DNA of 64,000 nucleotides. Origin: Chthoniobacterales bacterium. GTDB taxonomy: Bacteria; Verrucomicrobiota; Verrucomicrobiia; Chthoniobacterales; JACTMZ01. The position numbers and the translations under genes are program-made. Shown here one piece after another: positions 6,080 through 18,887 of this stretch. Where the stretch lies: assembly GCA_049315725.1 (NCBI GenBank), contig JBMOJP010000001.1:27690-91689 (forward strand). Direction: 5' to 3'. Every line of letters starts with the position of its first letter. Positions within the stretch are counted from its first letter, which is position 1. Under the pieces are notes generated by a model that saw only the letters and a list, made by a program, of their open reading frames with translations, was not told the DNA's origin and did no database searches.

Positions 6080-7579
6080 ATGTCACTTTCCGAGATCTCC
6101 TCCGCCAGCACTCCGCTTGAGTCACCGCACCTGCGTGACCACGACTACGCCCTGTCTGAGGCGCGGTGGATGCTCAATTTGGTCAAGACCCCGACGTCGG
6201 AGATTTCCCTCGAGGCGCGCCAGAATATCAGTGAGCAGACGGTCGACAACTTCGCCAACCACATCAACGCCGGCTTCCTCGAACACCGCAAGTCGGCCAC
6301 TTTGGGCGGCGAGTTTGCCTTCACCGAGTGGGAGGGTCAGGGGTCTTTGATTCGCGATGCCCTCGGTCGTGAGTTCATCGACATGCTGGGGGGATTTGGT
6401 CTTTACAGCTACGGCCTGCGGCACCCGAAAATCGTCGAGGCCGTGCGGGCCCAACTCGACCGGTCGCCGCAATACTCGCAGGAGATGCTCGATCCGCTCC
6501 GCGCCCAGTTGGGCCGGGTCCTGGCGCACCTCACCCCCGGCGACATCCAGAAGGGCTTTTTTGCCAACAGCGGGACCGAGGCCATCGAGGGCGCACTCAA
6601 ACTGGCCAAGTTTTACACCGGCAAGAGGGGCATCATTTCGATGCAAAAAGGTTTCCACGGCAAAACGCTTGGGTCGCTCTCGGTCACGGGCAAAAGCGTG
6701 TTCCGTGAGCCCATCCTGCCGCTGCTGGAGGGTGTCCGCTTCGTTCCCTACGGCTGCGCCTGCGCCGTCGAGCAGGAGTTGGAGGCGGCCCAGGTTGTGG
6801 GGGACGGCATGGCCGCGGTCATCATCGAGCCGGTCCAAGGCGAGGCGGGCGCGATTGTCCCGCCACCGGATTTCCTCCCGCGTCTGCGTGAGATTTGCGA
6901 CTATTACAAAGTCCTGCTCATCGCCGACGAGGTGCAAACCGGCTTCGGCCGCACGGGGAAAATGTTCGGCGTGGACCATGCCGGGATTGCCCCCGACATC
7001 ATGTGCTTCGGCAAGGCTCTGGGCGGTGGCGTGGTGGCCTGCAGCGCATTTTTTGCCACGGCCAAAATCTGGAGCGTGCTCGAGCCGAACCCGTTCATGC
7101 ACACGACCACGACCGGGGGTAACCCGCTGGCCTGCGCCGCAGCGCTTGCGGCTGTCGAAGTCATGCTTGAGGAGGACACTCCGCGGCAGGCGGCCGAGAA
7201 GGGCGATTACATGATGGTCAAGCTCAATGAGTTGAAGGCGCGGTATCCGGACGTTCTCAAGGAGGTGAGCGGGCAGGGGCTCCTGATCGGCATGAGGTTC
7301 CCGTCTTCGACCGTCGGCTACAAGGTGGCTTCCGGATTGTTCCAGCGCCGGGTTCTGACTGCCGGCACCTTGATCAGCGCCGAAAGCATTCGCATCGAGC
7401 CCGCGCTCAATGTGCCCATGGATTTGCTCGACGAGGTGCTCAACCGGTTGGAAGACACGCTCAAGAGCGTGAAACTCGAACCCGGGGACGTGCGGCCCGC
7501 GGTCCAGGAGCACAGTTTTTCCAAGCCCGAGTGTTACGGCCCCTGCGCCTGGGGCACCAAGTGCCTGGCGAAAAAGTAA
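6080..7579 (+). CDS. class-III PLP aminotransferase (putrescine / acetylornithine aminotransferase-like)
   Basis: Contains FANSGTEAIEGALKLAK, FHGKTLGSLS, LIADEVQTGFGRTGKMF and GKALGGG blocks. The start is taken at ATG 6080 (MSLSEIS), and the ORF extends to 6044. It ends in an unusual Cys-containing tail, ECYGPCAWGTKCLAKK. Confidence 0.85.
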   Translation: MSLSEISSASTPLESPHLRDHDYALSEARWMLNLVKTPTSEISLEARQNISEQTVDNFANHINAGFLEHRKSATLGGEFAFTEWEGQGSLIRDALGREFIDMLGGFGLYSYGLRHPKIVEAVRAQLDRSPQYSQEMLDPLRAQLGRVLAHLTPGDIQKGFFANSGTEAIEGALKLAKFYTGKRGIISMQKGFHGKTLGSLSVTGKSVFREPILPLLEGVRFVPYGCACAVEQELEAAQVVGDGMAAVIIEPVQGEAGAIVPPPDFLPRLREICDYYKVLLIADEVQTGFGRTGKMFGVDHAGIAPDIMCFGKALGGGVVACSAFFATAKIWSVLEPNPFMHTTTTGGNPLACAAALAAVEVMLEEDTPRQAAEKGDYMMVKLNELKARYPDVLKEVSGQGLLIGMRFPSSTVGYKVASGLFQRRVLTAGTLISAESIRIEPALNVPMDLLDEVLNRLEDTLKSVKLEPGDVRPAVQEHSFSKPECYGPCAWGTKCLAKK

Positions 7580-7614
7580 CACGCTCGTGCTGCCAGCCGC
7601 ATCGCGCAGCGTAA

Positions 7615-8028
7615 CTACCAACCGCGTTTGACGGCGAACTTTCGCGCTTCGAGCAGCGGGAGCAGGCGTTCCGCGAGTTCGCCTTGAAGCTCGAGTTGAC
7701 GTCCTTCGATTTTGCCGCCGCAGCCGAGTGAGGTTTTTAACTCGTGCAGCAGGTCTTGCAATTTCGTTGCGGACCACGCGGGCGAGAATCCTTCGAGCAC
7801 GAGGACAGTTTTGCCGCCACGGTGCGCGGTGGAGCGGCGCAGGAGGAGACGCTCGATCCGGGTTTTCTTGTTGTTCGGCAACCCCTGAACGGACGGGGCG
7901 CCCGTTCCCCCTGGTTGGGCGCAGGCCGGTTCAGCGGGCAGCAGCCCGAGGTCAAGCGCGGCGAAGGGATTGGCCCAGGCGGCTGGGGCAGCGTCGGTCG
8001 GGATCCGTCTTTTTTTCTCCCGGGCCAC
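7615..8028 (-). CDS. SUI1/eIF1-family translation initiation factor (YciH-like)
   Basis: The C-terminal 85 aa (GGKTVLVLEGF...LKTSLGCGGKIEG..LELQGE) match the SUI1 fold signature. Confidence 0.8.
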   Translation of the reverse strand: MAREKKRRIPTDAAPAAWANPFAALDLGLLPAEPACAQPGGTGAPSVQGLPNNKKTRIERLLLRRSTAHRGGKTVLVLEGFSPAWSATKLQDLLHELKTSLGCGGKIEGRQLELQGELAERLLPLLEARKFAVKRGW

Positions 8029-13827: not shown

Positions 13828-14514
13828 CTACGCCCTGCGGGCCAGTCGTTGGCCGACCGTGGTGAAGACGAGCACCCAAAAGCACTGGATGGTGACGGCG
13901 ATCGGAATCTGGAGCAACTGCGGCATCGAATAGACAACCGTGACGCCGGGAACCCAAATCATCCACCCGGCGACCACGATCGGGACAACCTGCTCGATGT
14001 AAAACCCGATCTGCAGAACCTCCCTCCATGCCTCCCGCCGGAATCGCCCCGCGCAGAGGGCGAAGTAGCCGACCATGACCGGGTTGGAGAAAAGCGGACT
14101 GAAGAGGAATTGATCGACGAGCACCTTCGGCACCACCGAGGCAAGGGAGGCCTCGTGGCCGAACCAGGCCGCTTGGTATCGATAAAAAACATCCACGACC
14201 ATCCCCATCAGCCCCCAGCCCGCACCGGCGGCAAGGAAGTTGAAAAAATTGCGGCGCACCAGCCGGCCAGACTGGAAGAAGACGATGCGCAAGATCTCCG
14301 GCAGCAGCGCGGCCGCCAGCACGTAGGAAAAAAAGGCAAAGGCCAAGCCGGATTCCTGCTTCACCCCGGCGACCGCGGACAGAAACCGCCTGGTTCCGTC
14401 GTGGGTGAAATAGGCGAAGAGAAACATCGCCATCAATCCTTGGAGGACGAGGCCGGGAACTATGTTGGCCCGGATCGCCGCGGTGACCGTCCGCTGGATG
14501 GACCGCCACCTCAT
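13828..14514 (-). CDS. polytopic membrane protein, Mpv17/PMP22-like (family call tentative)
   Basis: 228 aa from ATG 14514. It has 4-5 hydrophobic helices and the block VLVDQFLFSPLF...AGWMIWVPGVTVVYSMP, which resembles the Mpv17/PMP22 signature. The longer ORF to 15054 is Arg-rich and overlaps the neighbouring gene. Confidence 0.6.
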   Translation of the reverse strand: MRWRSIQRTVTAAIRANIVPGLVLQGLMAMFLFAYFTHDGTRRFLSAVAGVKQESGLAFAFFSYVLAAALLPEILRIVFFQSGRLVRRNFFNFLAAGAGWGLMGMVVDVFYRYQAAWFGHEASLASVVPKVLVDQFLFSPLFSNPVMVGYFALCAGRFRREAWREVLQIGFYIEQVVPIVVAGWMIWVPGVTVVYSMPQLLQIPIAVTIQCFWVLVFTTVGQRLARRA

Positions 14515-14631
14515 CGGTTCTTCGCCGCCAGAAAAGCCCGCGTCCCGCGCAAGAACTCTGATTTTGCGTAAGGCATCAACCCGGAGTGTTCCAGAAGCTG
14601 CCCGAGTCGGCGAGATGCGTTCCGCAGCACC

Positions 14632-15297
14632 GTGCCAGCGGGGGCGTGGAGCGGCAACCAGCCAGCGGCAAATATTAACTGGTATGAGGCTGCGGCGTTT
14701 GTCAACTGGCTCAACACGAGCACGGGCAAGACGGCGGCCTATGATCTGGCATGGGACGGTTCCGCATGGAGCATGAACCTGTGGAGCAGAGGGCAGGCGT
14801 GGACGGCGGGCGGAACCAACCTCTACCGGAACAAGGACGCCTTTTATTTTCTGCCGAGCGAGAACGAGTGGTATAAGGCGGCGTATTACAACCCGGCCGG
14901 GTCGAACTATTTCCTTTATCCCACGGCGAGCAGCAGTGTCCCGGCGGCGGTGTCCAGCGGGACCAACGCAGGGACGGCGGTTTACAATGGCGCCTCGGTT
15001 CCGGCCATAGTGGACAGCGCTGGAGGCCTGAGCCCGTATGGAACAATGGGCCAAGGCGGCAATGTGTGGGAGTGGAACGAGAGTGCCTGGGGTGAGGGTC
15101 GCGCGATCCGCGGTGGCTTCTGGGGCGACTTCGAGGGCTGGTTGCGCTCCTCGAACCGGGACGCCCTCTTCCCGTCGAGCGAGTTCCGCAGCATCGGTTT
15201 TCGTGTCGCGAGTGTCCCTGAACCCTCGACCTACGCGCTGGTGTTGCTGGGAGCGGGAGCAGTGTATCTCTGGAAGCGTCGGAAGAGTTCCCTTTGA
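14632..15297 (+). CDS. FGE-sulfatase/SUMF1-like domain protein with a PEP-CTERM anchor; N-terminally truncated (possible pseudogene)
   Basis: Contains NINWYEAAAFVNWLN, GNVWEWNES and RGGFWG blocks. The C-terminus is VPEPSTYALVLLGAGAVYLWKRRK, i.e. PEP-CTERM. The frame opens only at 14572 after a TAA, the first start is GTG 14632, and no signal peptide is present. Confidence 0.6.
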   Translation: MPAGAWSGNQPAANINWYEAAAFVNWLNTSTGKTAAYDLAWDGSAWSMNLWSRGQAWTAGGTNLYRNKDAFYFLPSENEWYKAAYYNPAGSNYFLYPTASSSVPAAVSSGTNAGTAVYNGASVPAIVDSAGGLSPYGTMGQGGNVWEWNESAWGEGRAIRGGFWGDFEGWLRSSNRDALFPSSEFRSIGFRVASVPEPSTYALVLLGAGAVYLWKRRKSSL

Positions 15298-15367: not shown

Positions 15368-15592
15368 ATGCATGCGGTGGTCAACATCGAGGAAACGATC
15401 GGCAAAACGGTGGGCCGGCGGCGTGTGGCCGACCCGCTGGTCGCACCCCCCGGTGACCGTGAACGGCAGCGTGCCTGGCGGGAGGCTGGATTTTTCCCGA
15501 ACATCAAGAAGGGTGTTTACCGTTTCAAGACCTTCGAGGAGGCGGATGACCATTGGATGAAAGCACTGACAGCGGCTCGCCCTCAGAGCTGA
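15368..15592 (+). CDS. small hypothetical protein, candidate partner of the downstream nucleotidyltransferase
   Basis: 74 codons from ATG, ending ...KKGVYRFKTFEEADDHWMKALTAARPQS. It overlaps the next ORF by 40 nt if that ORF starts at TTG 15553. Confidence 0.4.
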   Translation: MHAVVNIEETIGKTVGRRRVADPLVAPPGDRERQRAWREAGFFPNIKKGVYRFKTFEEADDHWMKALTAARPQS

Positions 15593-16074
15593 CCCCGCGC
15601 GACCCGTCGGTCGAGGACGTGGTGGCGCTCTGCCGGGAGTTGAATTCGCGGGGTGCCCGTTACCTCGTCGTCGGAGGATTTGCCATCAAACACGCGGGCT
15701 TGGCGAGGAACACGCAAGACATCGATCTCCTCGTTGATCCGTCACTCGAGAATGAGGCCAGGGTTTTCGAGGCCCTGGCCACGCTGCCGGACGGATGCGT
15801 GCGCGAGCTTGATGCGGGGGACATTAGCCGATTCATCGTGGTCCGTGTGGCCGATGAAGTGCTGGTGGACCTGATGGCGCGGGCCAGCGGGATCGATTAC
15901 GAGGAGGCCCGGCATCATGTGTGCGTGCGGGAACTCGATGGGGTGGAGATTCCGTTCGCCTCGCCCGAGCTGCTTTGGCGGATGAAGCGCCACACCCACC
16001 GAGCCAAGGATCAGGGTGATCTCGCCTTTCTGCGTGAGCTCTTCGCCGCCCAAGGCCGCCAGCCGCCCGAGTAG
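15553..16074 (+). CDS. nucleotidyltransferase-fold protein (MNT/AbiEii/DUF6036-like)
   Basis: ARYLVVGGFAIKHAGLARNTQDIDLLVD (G..G..DxD) and C-terminal LLWRMKRHTHRAKDQGDLAFL. The start is ambiguous: TTG 15553 or GTG 15619. Confidence 0.65.
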   Translation: MDESTDSGSPSELTPRDPSVEDVVALCRELNSRGARYLVVGGFAIKHAGLARNTQDIDLLVDPSLENEARVFEALATLPDGCVRELDAGDISRFIVVRVADEVLVDLMARASGIDYEEARHHVCVRELDGVEIPFASPELLWRMKRHTHRAKDQGDLAFLRELFAAQGRQPPE

Positions 16075-16117
16075 CCGCGACGCGAGAAAACGTTGTCCTG
16101 AGCCCCGCCCCGCGGGC

Positions 16118-16927
16118 ATGTTGTGGGGCATGGTCAAAGTTGCTCTTCCTGCCAAGGCGCTCATCGGCATGGTGCATGTCGGGGCGTTGCCCGGGACGCC
16201 GCGCGGGGAGCGGACGGTGGAGGAATTGGTGCGGGCGGCTGTGCAGGAGGTCTGGACGCTGGCCGAGGGCGGGTGTGATGCCGTGCTGGTCGAGAACATG
16301 CATGATGTGCCGTATCTGCGGCGGGAAGTGGGACCGGAAGTGGTGGCGGCGATGACGGTCATCTGCCGCGCGGTCAACGAGGCGACCGACCTGCCCTGCG
16401 GCGTGCAGATTCTCGCCGGCGCCAACGAAGCCGCGCTCGCCGTGGCCCTGGCCGCGGGGCTTGATTTTATCCGCGCGGAGGGATTTGTCTTTGGGCACGT
16501 GGCCGACGAGGGCTGGATGGACGCCTGCGCCGGGCCGTTGTTGCGCTATCGGCGCCAGATCGGTGCCGGGCACATTGCGGTCTGGGCCGACGTGAAGAAA
16601 AAGCACGCGGCCCACGCCATGACCGCCGATCTCAGTTTGGCCGAGACAGTCCGCGCGGCGGAGTTCTTTGCCGTCGATGGCGTGATCGTGACCGGCGAGG
16701 CCACCGGACGCGAAACTTCCTTCGACGACCTCGCCGCCGCCCGCGGGGCCACCGGGCTGCCCGTCATGGTCGGGTCGGGGGTCACGGCGGAGAATGTCGC
16801 CTCCATGCTGGCGCAGGCCGATGCGGTGATTGTCGGATCGGCCCTCAAGGCGGGTGGACATTGGTCCGCCCCGGTCGATCTCGAGCGGGTCAAAGCACTG
16901 GCCGCCGCGGTGCGGTCCGTCCGCTAA
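16118..16927 (+). CDS. BtpA/SgcQ family (TIM-barrel) protein
   Basis: LIGMVHVGALPGTP..., ENMHDVPY, VQILAGAN and GSGVTAENV blocks typical of BtpA. ATG 16118 is chosen within ORF 16016..16927. Confidence 0.8.
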   Translation: MLWGMVKVALPAKALIGMVHVGALPGTPRGERTVEELVRAAVQEVWTLAEGGCDAVLVENMHDVPYLRREVGPEVVAAMTVICRAVNEATDLPCGVQILAGANEAALAVALAAGLDFIRAEGFVFGHVADEGWMDACAGPLLRYRRQIGAGHIAVWADVKKKHAAHAMTADLSLAETVRAAEFFAVDGVIVTGEATGRETSFDDLAAARGATGLPVMVGSGVTAENVASMLAQADAVIVGSALKAGGHWSAPVDLERVKALAAAVRSVR

Positions 16928-16936
16928 GTTTTCGCC

Positions 16937-18016
16937 ATGGCCCGCATTTTGGTCGCCATGTCCGGCGGGGTGGACAGCTCGGTCGCCGCCCTGCTCCTGC
17001 GCGAGCAGGGGCACGAGATCGAGGGAGCCTACATGAAAAATTGGATGGCCGAGCGCGATCCCTTCGGCCAGTGCCCTTGGGAGGACGATGTGGCCGACGC
17101 GCGTGCGGTGGCGGAAAAACTCGGCATTCCCTTTCGCGTCATCAACCTCATCGAAGACTACCGCAAGCACGTGGTGGATTATCTGCTGCGCGGATATGCC
17201 GCCGGCGTGACGCCGAACCCGGATGTTTTTTGCAACCGTGAGATAAAATTCGGGGTCTTTCTCGATTTGGCGCGGCGGGAGGGATTCGACGGCGTCGGCA
17301 CGGGGCATTACGCCAGAATTGCTGCGGGACCGGACGCCACGCGGGGCCTTTTCGAGGGCCGGGATCCGGGCAAGGACCAATCCTATTTTTTGTCCATGCT
17401 GCGTCCGGAGCAGATTGCGCACGCCTGGTTTCCCGTCGGCGAACTGCTCAAGCGCGAGGTCCGGGCCAAGGCAACGGATGCTGGCTTGGCCACGGCGGCG
17501 AAGAAGGACAGCCAGGGCATCTGCTTCATCGGCAAGGTGCGTATGGCGGATTTTCTCCGGGAGTATCTGCCGGAAAAACCGGGTGCGATCGTTGACCCCG
17601 CTGGTCGCGTGCTCGGCGAGCATCGCGGGCTGCACTACTACACCCTGGGCCAGCGCCGTGGTATTCGTGTCGCTTCACCGGAGCCACACACCGCTTATGT
17701 GGTGGTGGAGAAACGGATCGCGACAAACGAGCTCGTCATCGGCTACGACCGTCCCGAGACGGCGGGTCTCTATGCCCGCCGTGCGGTGCTCACCAGCCTG
17801 AGCGCGGCCGGCGCGGCACTGCCCGAGCATGCTCTGATCGAGGCGCGCCCGCGCTACCGCGCCCCGCGGGTCGGGATCGAGTTCAGGTCTCGCGGCGACG
17901 GCTCGGCGGAGGTGGAGTTTTCCGTGACCCAGCGCGCCTTGGCTCCGGGGCAAATCTGCGCCTTGTATGACGGGACGCAGCTGCTCGGCGGCGGGGTTTT
18001 TTCCGAGATCGGTTGA
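16937..18016 (+). CDS. mnmA: tRNA 2-thiouridine(34) synthase
   Basis: ILVAMSGGVDSSVAA PP-loop, PNPDVFCNREIKF and DQSYFL motifs; 359 aa. Confidence 0.93.
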   Translation: MARILVAMSGGVDSSVAALLLREQGHEIEGAYMKNWMAERDPFGQCPWEDDVADARAVAEKLGIPFRVINLIEDYRKHVVDYLLRGYAAGVTPNPDVFCNREIKFGVFLDLARREGFDGVGTGHYARIAAGPDATRGLFEGRDPGKDQSYFLSMLRPEQIAHAWFPVGELLKREVRAKATDAGLATAAKKDSQGICFIGKVRMADFLREYLPEKPGAIVDPAGRVLGEHRGLHYYTLGQRRGIRVASPEPHTAYVVVEKRIATNELVIGYDRPETAGLYARRAVLTSLSAAGAALPEHALIEARPRYRAPRVGIEFRSRGDGSAEVEFSVTQRALAPGQICALYDGTQLLGGGVFSEIG

Positions 18017-18108
18017 AGTTGTTTTCTGCGGAAAACGTCGTGGGCCCCGATCCGAGGGAACAAGAATTGCGTTGGCGCGGGCGGCCGCCCCGCTCTTTAC
18101 TTTGCTGG

Positions 18109-18627
18109 ATGGAACTCCGGAGTATCGACGCGATCGTGCGGGCGCTCAATGACGCCGAGGTTCGCTATCTCGTGGTCGATGGACTCGCGGTTAACGCGCA
18201 CGGATATGCCCGAATGACGCGGGATGTCGACCTGGTCATCCAACTGGAGCAATCGAATATCAAACGCGGATTGCATGCGTTGCTTTCAGTTGGTTACCAG
18301 CTGATGATTCCAGAGGTCCTGGAAGCTTTTGCGGATGCCCATCAGCGCGAAAAATGGCGGGTCGAGAAAGGGATGATCGTCCTCAAGCTCTGGAGCGATC
18401 TGCATCGGCGCACCCCGGTGGATGTCTTCGTTTACGAGCCCTTCCCCTTTGACTTGGAGTATTCCGCCGCGGTGTGGGTGGAGATTTCCCCGGGTCTCCA
18501 GGCCTCGATCGTTTCCCTCCCGACCTTGCTGCAAATGAAGCGTGAGGCTGGGCGACCCCGTGATATTGATGACATCAACGAACTCGCTCCCAATGAAAAA
18601 AGCGGAAAAAGCCACACCGAAGCCTGA
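18109..18627 (+). CDS. nucleotidyltransferase-fold protein, paralogous to 15553..16074
   Basis: VRYLVVDGLAVNAHGYARMTRDVDLVIQ and LLQMKREAGRPRDIDDINEL align by eye with the first copy. ATG 18109 is chosen within ORF 18013..18627. Confidence 0.65.
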   Translation: MELRSIDAIVRALNDAEVRYLVVDGLAVNAHGYARMTRDVDLVIQLEQSNIKRGLHALLSVGYQLMIPEVLEAFADAHQREKWRVEKGMIVLKLWSDLHRRTPVDVFVYEPFPFDLEYSAAVWVEISPGLQASIVSLPTLLQMKREAGRPRDIDDINELAPNEKSGKSHTEA

Positions 18628-18793
18628 CTGGCGCTGGGGCACGCCCGAAGGTAGCAGGGAGTTCGATCGCCTGATCGACCGCTCAATGACCTTTCGTGAG
18701 TGTTTGGAGTGGTTGGAGGAGGCCGAGACGCTCGCTTTGCGTCTGGCGACCGAGCGAAGTCTTCGGGTGAGCGAGGCCGCTGAGAAATTCTAG
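18593..18793 (+). CDS. small hypothetical protein, candidate partner of the upstream nucleotidyltransferase
   Basis: 66 codons from ATG 18593 (MKKAEKATPKPDWRWGTPEG...MTFRECLEWLEEAETLALRL...). It overlaps the 3' end of the NTase gene by 35 nt. Confidence 0.4.
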   Translation: MKKAEKATPKPDWRWGTPEGSREFDRLIDRSMTFRECLEWLEEAETLALRLATERSLRVSEAAEKF

Positions 18794-18887
18794 GGGCTGA
18801 TCCCGGCCCGATGTTTTCTTTTCAGGTTGTTTCCAGGTTGTGTGCATCCGGGTAGGCTGTGATAGCTTGCGTTGACTGAACACCACC

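Follow-up and report, generated by a model that had tools for sequence, protein, structure and literature searches.

Two MenT1-like nucleotidyltransferase genes with overlapping small partner genes in a Chthoniobacterales genome: two probable toxin-antitoxin-type modules

Two pairs of small genes were analyzed in a 64,000-nucleotide (nt) stretch of a Chthoniobacterales genome (GenBank assembly GCA_049315725.1, contig JBMOJP010000001.1, positions 27,690 to 91,689 of the forward strand). This whole stretch is referred to as the window, and coordinates are given within it. Cassette 1 contains P1 at 15368..15592 (+), a 74-amino-acid (aa) gene from the open reading frame (ORF) list, and NT1 at 15553..16074 (+), which encodes a MenT1-like minimal nucleotidyltransferase (NTase) of 173 aa and starts with TTG. 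Cassette 2 contains NT2 at 18109..18627 (+), which encodes a second MenT1-like minimal NTase of 172 aa, and P2 at 18593..18793 (+), a 66-aa gene from the same list. All four genes are on the same strand in both the ORF list and the sequence. P1 and NT1 overlap by 40 nt, and NT2 and P2 overlap by 35 nt. An earlier sequence-only reading of this DNA had described these ORFs, their coordinates, overlaps of 35 to 40 nt, and motifs shared by the NTases, all of which hold. The NTases are putative toxins and the small partners are putative antitoxins. Each cassette is probably a toxin-antitoxin-type module of the MenAT1 kind, consisting of two genes and independent of the other.

By sequence comparison, NT1 and NT2 are distant full-length homologues and not recent duplicates. 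BLASTP aligned their N-terminal 54 aa with 41% identity (E 3e-10). The two family profiles aligned over 147 columns with 28% identity (hhalign probability 98.6%, E 7e-16). This alignment takes in the C-terminal MK...R.(K/R)D..D motif that had been read as common to both. NT1 contains the pol-beta motif for metal and nucleotide binding, hG[GS] x9-13 Dh[DE]h, in the form VVGGFA...x13...DIDLL, with G41, G42, D56, and D58 invariant. In the NT2 family the motif reads VGGLA...DVDLV. The databases contained 3805 homologues of NT1 and 1125 of NT2. The NT1 homologues that were listed, in 120 clusters, all had at least 66% identity.

NT1 matches Pfam DUF2204 (PF09970) with 25.5 bits, which is above the cut-off. 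It also has weak matches to DUF6036, AbiEii, and Aminoglyc_resit. NT2 has weak Pfam matches to AbiEii and DUF2204 only. Many members of both families match DUF2204 or DUF6036, and between 12 and 18 of 26 NT2 family members match Pfam AbiEii, DUF6036, or DUF2204. At E <0.01, PF08843 (AbiEii/DUF1814) was matched by 18 of 26 NT2 relatives and by 1 of 23 NT1 relatives. Some NT2 homologues carry the NCBI name AbiEii/AbiGii toxin family.

The best match to both families in the PDB is the toxin MenT1 from Mycobacterium tuberculosis. Profile searches retrieved it first for the NT1 family (8AN4, E 3.8e-9) and for the NT2 family (E 3.8e-10), in each case over nearly the whole protein. The AF2 model of NT1 had a pLDDT of 86.5 and a pTM of 0.83. 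Its top Foldseek match in the PDB was again MenT1 (8AN5_B/8AN4), with a TM of 0.55-0.62 and 24-29% identity. TM1012, LnuA, and ANT(2'')-Ia followed in rank.

The catalytic and regulatory residues published for MenT1 are R37, T39, D41, D43, K137, and D152 (PMC10435456, PMC11375011). In HMMER alignments they correspond to R52, T54, D56, D58, K145, and D156 of NT1 and to R35, T37, D39, D41, K144, and D155 of NT2. These residues are invariant or near-invariant in the respective families. The threonine two residues before the first catalytic aspartate is near-invariant in NT1 (T54) and invariant in NT2 (T37), and the C-terminal lysine and aspartate are invariant in both (K145 and D156; K144 and D155). 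A serine or threonine is the phospho-acceptor in this enzyme group, namely, T39 in MenT1 and S78 in MenT3 (PMC11375011). MenT1 contacts its antitoxin, MenA1, through F38. That position is not conserved and is occupied by Asn in NT1 and Met in NT2, which fits a different partner.

The Foldseek matches of the NT1 model to LnuA and ANT(2'')-Ia (E 2e-4 to 4e-3) and the weak Pfam Aminoglyc_resit matches are what antibiotic NTases of the ANT(2'')/Lnu type would give, each accompanied by an accessory peptide. We regard this explanation as highly improbable. MenT1 is the better match by both sequence and structure, and the MenT-specific threonine and C-terminal K...D are conserved. An obligatory overlapping small gene is moreover a hallmark of toxin-antitoxin systems and not of resistance genes.

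Relatives of NT1 were sought in one genome per GTDB species, and the scan returned 80 loci. The hosts were mostly Verrucomicrobiota (Chthoniobacterales, Terrimicrobiaceae, Opitutales, and Limisphaerales). Loci were also found in Acidobacteriota (Vicinamibacterales) and others, with 55-73% identity. A P1 homologue was located directly upstream of the NTase gene in 78 of the 80 loci (tblastn). The two genes overlapped by 31-46 nt (mode, 40) in 77 of 77 pairs. P1 has two conserved motifs, (V/I)N.EE.IGK.VGRR near the N terminus and GVYRF.(S/T).EEAD.W near the C terminus. Alignments A2 and A6 of the family showed G16, R18, G49, F53, and A59 to be invariant. Identity among NT1 relatives was 55-84% for the NTase versus 33-76% for the partner. 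The NTase is thus the more conserved of the two, as is usual for a toxin relative to its antitoxin.

NT1 is preceded by the Shine-Dalgarno-like sequence GAGGAGG at 15536..15542 (+), read from the sequence 10 nt before the TTG. It is built from the codons of the conserved FEEAD of P1. The Glu codons of FEEAD are GAGGAG in 36 of 69 P1 family members and are purine-rich in nearly all others. The FEEAD stretch may be under dual constraint from coding and ribosome binding, to judge from this codon pattern.

The AF2 model of P1 had a moderate pLDDT of 71. It contains 29 N-terminal residues of non-regular coil, followed by two short helices. Foldseek retrieved no match to this model in the PDB, and with a pLDDT of only 71, remote structural similarity to MenA1 is possible. 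All 35 database matches of P1 were annotated as hypothetical protein or were unnamed. One distant relative of cassette 1 is on pAZI09, an IncP conjugative plasmid of Azospira sp. I09 (L178, 2259-3001). It encodes a 34%-identical NTase with a 75-aa ORF upstream that carries the P1 signature IGRR...KGLYRFKSFEEAN, and both genes are annotated as hypothetical.

Two loci contain a second, divergent NT1/NT2-like NTase with ~30-40% identity (L024, 2836-3249, minus strand; L068, 3782-4027, minus strand). In both it is encoded on the other strand, 1-2 kb upstream from P1-NT1, which suggests that NTase modules cluster.

The pairing of NT2 was followed in 13 loci from an exact-protein look-up and in 80 metagenome loci. 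A P2 homologue was found directly downstream of the NT2 relative in all 13 look-up loci and in 76 of the 80 metagenome loci. Two of the four misses had <100 nt of contig remaining. The overlap between NT2 and P2 was 4 nt (ATGA) in 57 of 72 pairs. P2 has the conserved core PDW.WGT.EGSR..DRL.DR..TFRE.LEWLEEAETL.L (alignment A3; 57 distinct sequences). An exhaustive phmmer search with P2 returned 74 representative clusters, nearly all with proteins of 55-100 aa.

Two long repeat proteins that scored well in the P2 search, P0280 and P0337, were rejected as composition or repeat artefacts. The same search retrieved a 195-aa protein (P0313) in which a degraded C-terminal half of NT2 runs into P2-like sequence within one ORF. 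This ORF probably represents an NT2-P2 module that has decayed or been frameshifted.

P1 and P2 are real genes by their sequence record, with homologues and conserved motifs in both families. Searches of Pfam, NCBIfam, PADLOC, PHROGs, and PDB sequences gave nothing credible for either. P1 and P2 are also not homologous to each other as far as sequence comparison goes, with no BLASTP alignment and an hhalign probability of 0.2%. All-against-all clustering of flanking ORFs found no third conserved gene; the commonest neighbor occurred in 6 of 80 and 9 of 80 loci. The consistent pairing, the overlaps, and the lack of a third gene indicate that both cassettes are self-contained units of two translationally coupled genes, found in variable contexts.

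These results bear out much of the sequence-only reading. It had proposed an NTase-based toxin-antitoxin or defense pair with a new small partner, a proposal now backed by ~97% conserved pairing and by partners that match no family. The survey of gene neighborhoods gave the consistent pairing that it looked for, and the small ORFs proved to be conserved in both families. Its description of the cassettes as paralogous stands for the NTases, which are homologous at ~28% identity. It applies to the cassettes in a loose sense only, since the partners have no detectable similarity.

The roles within each pair could be reversed. In the type VII MNT-HEPN system (HepT/MntA), the NTase is the antitoxin and its partner is a HEPN RNase. 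The NTases of the window would by analogy be antitoxins or modifiers and the small proteins would be toxic. The precedent of minimal NTases as antitoxins in MntA/HepT speaks for such a reversal, as does the fact that P1 and P2 match no known function. We consider it very unlikely, because the C-terminal Lys/Asp motif of MenT/DUF1814 is present in the NTases and their nearest match is a toxin, MenT1. P1 and P2 had no Pfam match to HEPN, and their alignments contained no conserved Rx4-6H. In the window copy, as in many relatives, Phe takes the place of the histidine in the P1 motif RF.SH. The partners are also only 66-74 aa long and partly unstructured.

Two housekeeping genes are located between cassette 1 and cassette 2 and belong to neither module. 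The first is btpA at 16130..16927 (+), which belongs to the BtpA/SgcQ family (Pfam BtpA, E 6e-66; TIGR00259). Its start is most likely the ATG at 16130 and not the start of a longer ORF, by comparison with an orthologue (L001). The second is mnmA at 16937..18016 (+), which encodes the tRNA 2-thiouridine(34) synthase (NCBIfam NF001138, E 2e-116). The block P1-NT1-btpA-mnmA was found only in a Chthoniobacter-like subset of nine loci (L001-L004, L018, L019, L022, L055, and L063), and the genes upstream of it vary among them. The gap between NT1 and btpA is 15-57 nt in the six insertion-free loci and ~0.8 kb in the other three (L018, L019, and L055). In the NT1 genome scan, the link to btpA-mnmA was present in only 5 of the 80 loci. 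The remaining loci had unrelated contexts with no recurrent neighbor.

One locus, from a Chthoniobacter flavus metagenome-assembled genome (L055, 5001-6300), contains an NT1 orthologue with a premature stop. The resulting ORF is 125 aa, and similarity continues beyond it. The gap between NT1 and btpA in this locus contains a minus-strand 188-aa ORF with a prepilin-like N terminus, and btpA-mnmA is intact.

Cassette 1 might be domesticated in the operon P1-NT1-btpA-mnmA, for example, as a tRNA-directed NTase working with MnmA. The block was kept in the nine loci despite the differing upstream genes, with the short gap in six of them. NT1 has diverged about as slowly as its neighbors (66-79% identity versus 80-85% for BtpA and MnmA). 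MenT-type enzymes moreover act on tRNA (PMC10435456). We find domestication very improbable all the same. The link to btpA-mnmA is confined to the few loci noted above, NT1 is interrupted in the C. flavus locus while btpA-mnmA is intact, and the insertion of ~0.8 kb between NT1 and btpA occurs in two further loci.

Cassette 2 has a different history. It was absent from all nine related P1-NT1-btpA-mnmA loci. One of these (L004) has the same downstream order as the window, with mnmA, leuA, and Methyltransf_28. DNA similarity between the two breaks off at the stop codon of mnmA and is found again from ~60 nt before leuA. The GC content of cassette 2 is 0.57-0.59, and the GC content at third codon positions (GC3) is 0.67-0.70. 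The neighboring genes have values of 0.64-0.69 and 0.78-0.83, respectively. Its lower GC content and its absence from the nine related loci make cassette 2 look recently inserted into the spacer between mnmA and leuA. Cassette 1 is an old resident that was inherited vertically with btpA-mnmA in one Chthoniobacter-like lineage. The flanking of btpA-mnmA by the two cassettes is coincidental. The mnmA-leuA spacer seems to be a site where insertions vary. The L004 spacer contains another 64-aa ORF (7450-7644, minus strand) with no Pfam match.

The sequence-only reading had offered a further possibility, that btpA-mnmA was captured by a mobile unit, with the cassettes as remnants of its duplicated ends. 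The arrangement itself prompts this idea of a composite unit, since two housekeeping genes lie between homologous NTase genes, all on one strand. The comparative loci refute it, and we reject it. A repeat search over 14.5-19.5 kb gave short chance matches only, and no direct or inverted DNA repeats bracket either cassette or the whole unit. The NTases are only ~28% identical, the partners are unrelated, and the cassettes differ in GC content. No transposase or integrase ORF is present within the interval. The nine relatives have cassette 1 and btpA-mnmA without cassette 2.

NT2 of the window has a change in its catalytic core. The first glycine of hG[GS] is replaced by aspartate (G24D; codon GAT, 18178-18180), so that the motif reads VVDGLAV. 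This position reads GG in 116 of 120 NT2 clusters. A protein that is 97% identical to the window NT2 (P0121) keeps GG, and the spacing on its contig matches mnmA-NT2-P2-leuA of the window. Aspartate also replaces this glycine in a distant group with ~62% identity (L118, L121, L125, L126, L128, L129, L130, L177, and P0184). The presence of the change in both the window and this group implies at least two independent origins. Other variants of hG[GS] among NT2 relatives are Gly-to-Arg, Gly-to-His, and GV, each seen once. G24D probably attenuates the putative toxin of the window, to judge from the motif that it alters. The recurrent change may represent recurrent natural attenuation of the toxin.

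A terminator-like GC hairpin with a T-rich tail is located at 18077..18095 (+), between the mnmA stop and the NT2 start. A second terminator-like hairpin is located directly after the P2 stop at 18794..18809 (+). Both come from a consensus scan and are pattern matches only. A scan for sigma-70 promoters upstream of each cassette gave nothing usable. With these two hairpins and no sigma-70-like promoter in the scan, transcription of NT2-P2 may read through from mnmA or start at a non-canonical promoter. Upstream of P1, the gene at 14632-15297 (+) has a PEP-CTERM-like sorting motif (VPEPSTYALVLLGAGAVYLWKRRK) at its end. It is overlapped by a 408-aa ORF on the minus strand (13828-15054), so that one or the other is probably not a real gene.

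We propose the following mechanism by analogy with MenT1. NT1 and NT2 would be MenT1-like enzymes that add nucleotides at the 3'-CCA acceptor ends of tRNA. This extension would block aminoacylation and lead to translation arrest. The adjoining, translationally coupled small protein would be the cognate antitoxin, with P1 upstream of NT1 and P2 downstream of NT2. P1 and P2 would neutralize the toxin through direct binding. Neutralization could also involve induced auto-phosphorylation of the active-site threonine (T54 in NT1 and T37 in NT2).

Several observations weigh against two toxin-antitoxin-type modules. The NTases missed the Pfam PF08843 gathering score of 22.5, with 15.4 bits for NT1 and 13.4 bits for NT2, and their PADLOC matches to AbiEii were only weak. 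We cast P1 and P2 as putative antitoxins on the basis of position and conservation only. Neither has sequence similarity to MenA1 or to a known antitoxin, and the P1 model had no fold match. NT1 is unusually conserved for a toxin, given its identity of at least 66% across the 120 listed clusters. This conservation, together with the stable synteny with housekeeping genes in one lineage, could mean a role other than that of a toxin. One distant match to NT1 (on pAZI09) and none to NT2 was found on plasmids, and viral contigs contained no relatives of either. Direct evidence of mobility is thin given this near-absence from plasmids and absence from viral contigs.

A more far-reaching version of the proposal seems unlikely to us. 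P1 and P2 would be two undescribed, unrelated antitoxin families that act unlike the helix clamp of MenA1, and in the Chthoniobacter-like lineage P1-NT1 would have been recruited to lead the btpA-mnmA operon. The unstructured N-terminal peptide of P1 (IGK.VGRR) could then enter the active site or trigger auto-phosphorylation of the threonine. The P1-NT1 leader would couple a toxin of the tRNA acceptor end to the expression of a tRNA-thiolation enzyme. Both antitoxin families would be widespread in Verrucomicrobiota and Acidobacteriota.

Work on MenT-type toxins has, to our knowledge, been confined almost entirely to M. tuberculosis, and MenA1 is the one known small antitoxin. The minimal MenT1 toxin scaffold appears here as two large environmental families, each locked to its own unannotated partner. 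If P1 and P2 are antitoxins, they would be two new compact neutralizers, useful for testing how general the auto-phosphorylation of the active-site Ser/Thr is. Thousands of pairs annotated as hypothetical protein and nucleotidyltransferase in soil and freshwater metagenomes would then gain a functional label. This would extend the known principle of partner swapping among toxin-antitoxin systems and would introduce neither a new principle nor a new kind of element.

The two modules resemble several known systems. In MNT-HEPN (MntA-HepT), too, a minimal pol-beta NTase is encoded by one of two overlapping genes that form the module. It differs in that the partners in the window are not HEPN proteins and the NTases carry MenT-type C-terminal motifs. 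AbiE (AbiEi-AbiEii), MenAT3, and MenAT4 (COG5340-DUF1814) belong to the same NTase superfamily. They share the four-motif core and are bicistronic toxin-antitoxin or abortive-infection systems. Their antitoxins are large winged-helix COG5340 proteins, and their toxins are ~250-300 aa. The partners in the window, in contrast, are 66-74 aa without a detectable domain, and the NTases are ~170 aa and fall below the Pfam AbiEii threshold. P1 and P2 had no match to the COG5340 (AbiEi) winged-helix partner in Pfam, NCBIfam, or PADLOC. Pfam DUF2204 (PF09970) and DUF6036 (PF19502) contain uncharacterized NTases, and the entries give no function or partner. A full-text literature search on these two families found no functional work; DUF2204 was mentioned only in passing and DUF6036 not at all.

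The closest known system is MenAT1 of M. tuberculosis (Rv0078B-Rv0078A; 8AN4, 8AN5, and 8RR5). Its toxin is an NTase of <200 aa from the DUF1814 superfamily and is the best match for both NT1 and NT2. It has the Thr, DxD, Lys, and Asp active site in common with them. MenT1 adds nucleotides to the 3' ends of tRNA, and translation stops (PMC10435456). It is neutralized by the 68-aa MenA1, which is encoded upstream and has no DNA-binding domain; 21 homologues of MenA1 have been reported (PMC10435456). Antitoxin-promoted auto-phosphorylation of the active-site Ser/Thr has been described in MenT (PMC11375011). The sequence-only reading was correct that the small partners do not look like HEPN proteins. 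It missed the precedent of MenA1, which already neutralizes MenT1 (PMC10435456), so a small partner outside HEPN is in itself nothing new.

MenAT1 is like cassette 1 in that a protein of ~70 aa without a DNA-binding domain is encoded next to the NTase, on its upstream side. It differs from cassette 2, in which the small gene is downstream. MenT1 has 196 aa, compared with 172-173 aa for NT1 and NT2. It contains a four-helix bundle (PMC10435456), whereas the NT1 model has only two helices after the beta-sheet, at 138-146 and 151-166. MenA1 contains a long N-terminal helix and a short helix (PMC10435456), and the P1 model contains coil and two short helices. The hosts of MenAT1 are Actinobacteria, whereas the NT1 and NT2 pairs are found in Verrucomicrobiota and Acidobacteriota. 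Profiles of P1 and P2 searched against the PDB, which includes MenA1 in 8AN5, gave no match to 8AN5 at E values up to 10. Membership of P1 and P2 in the MenA1 family is not supported. A functional analogy with MenA1 is supported, in that P1 and P2 would likewise be small antitoxins without a DNA-binding domain that adjoin a MenT1-like toxin. MenAT1 already provides both the scaffold of the toxin and the idea of a small protein as antitoxin. Apparently undescribed are both families of partners, the NT2-P2 order with the putative toxin gene first, and the wide occurrence of these pairs in the environment.

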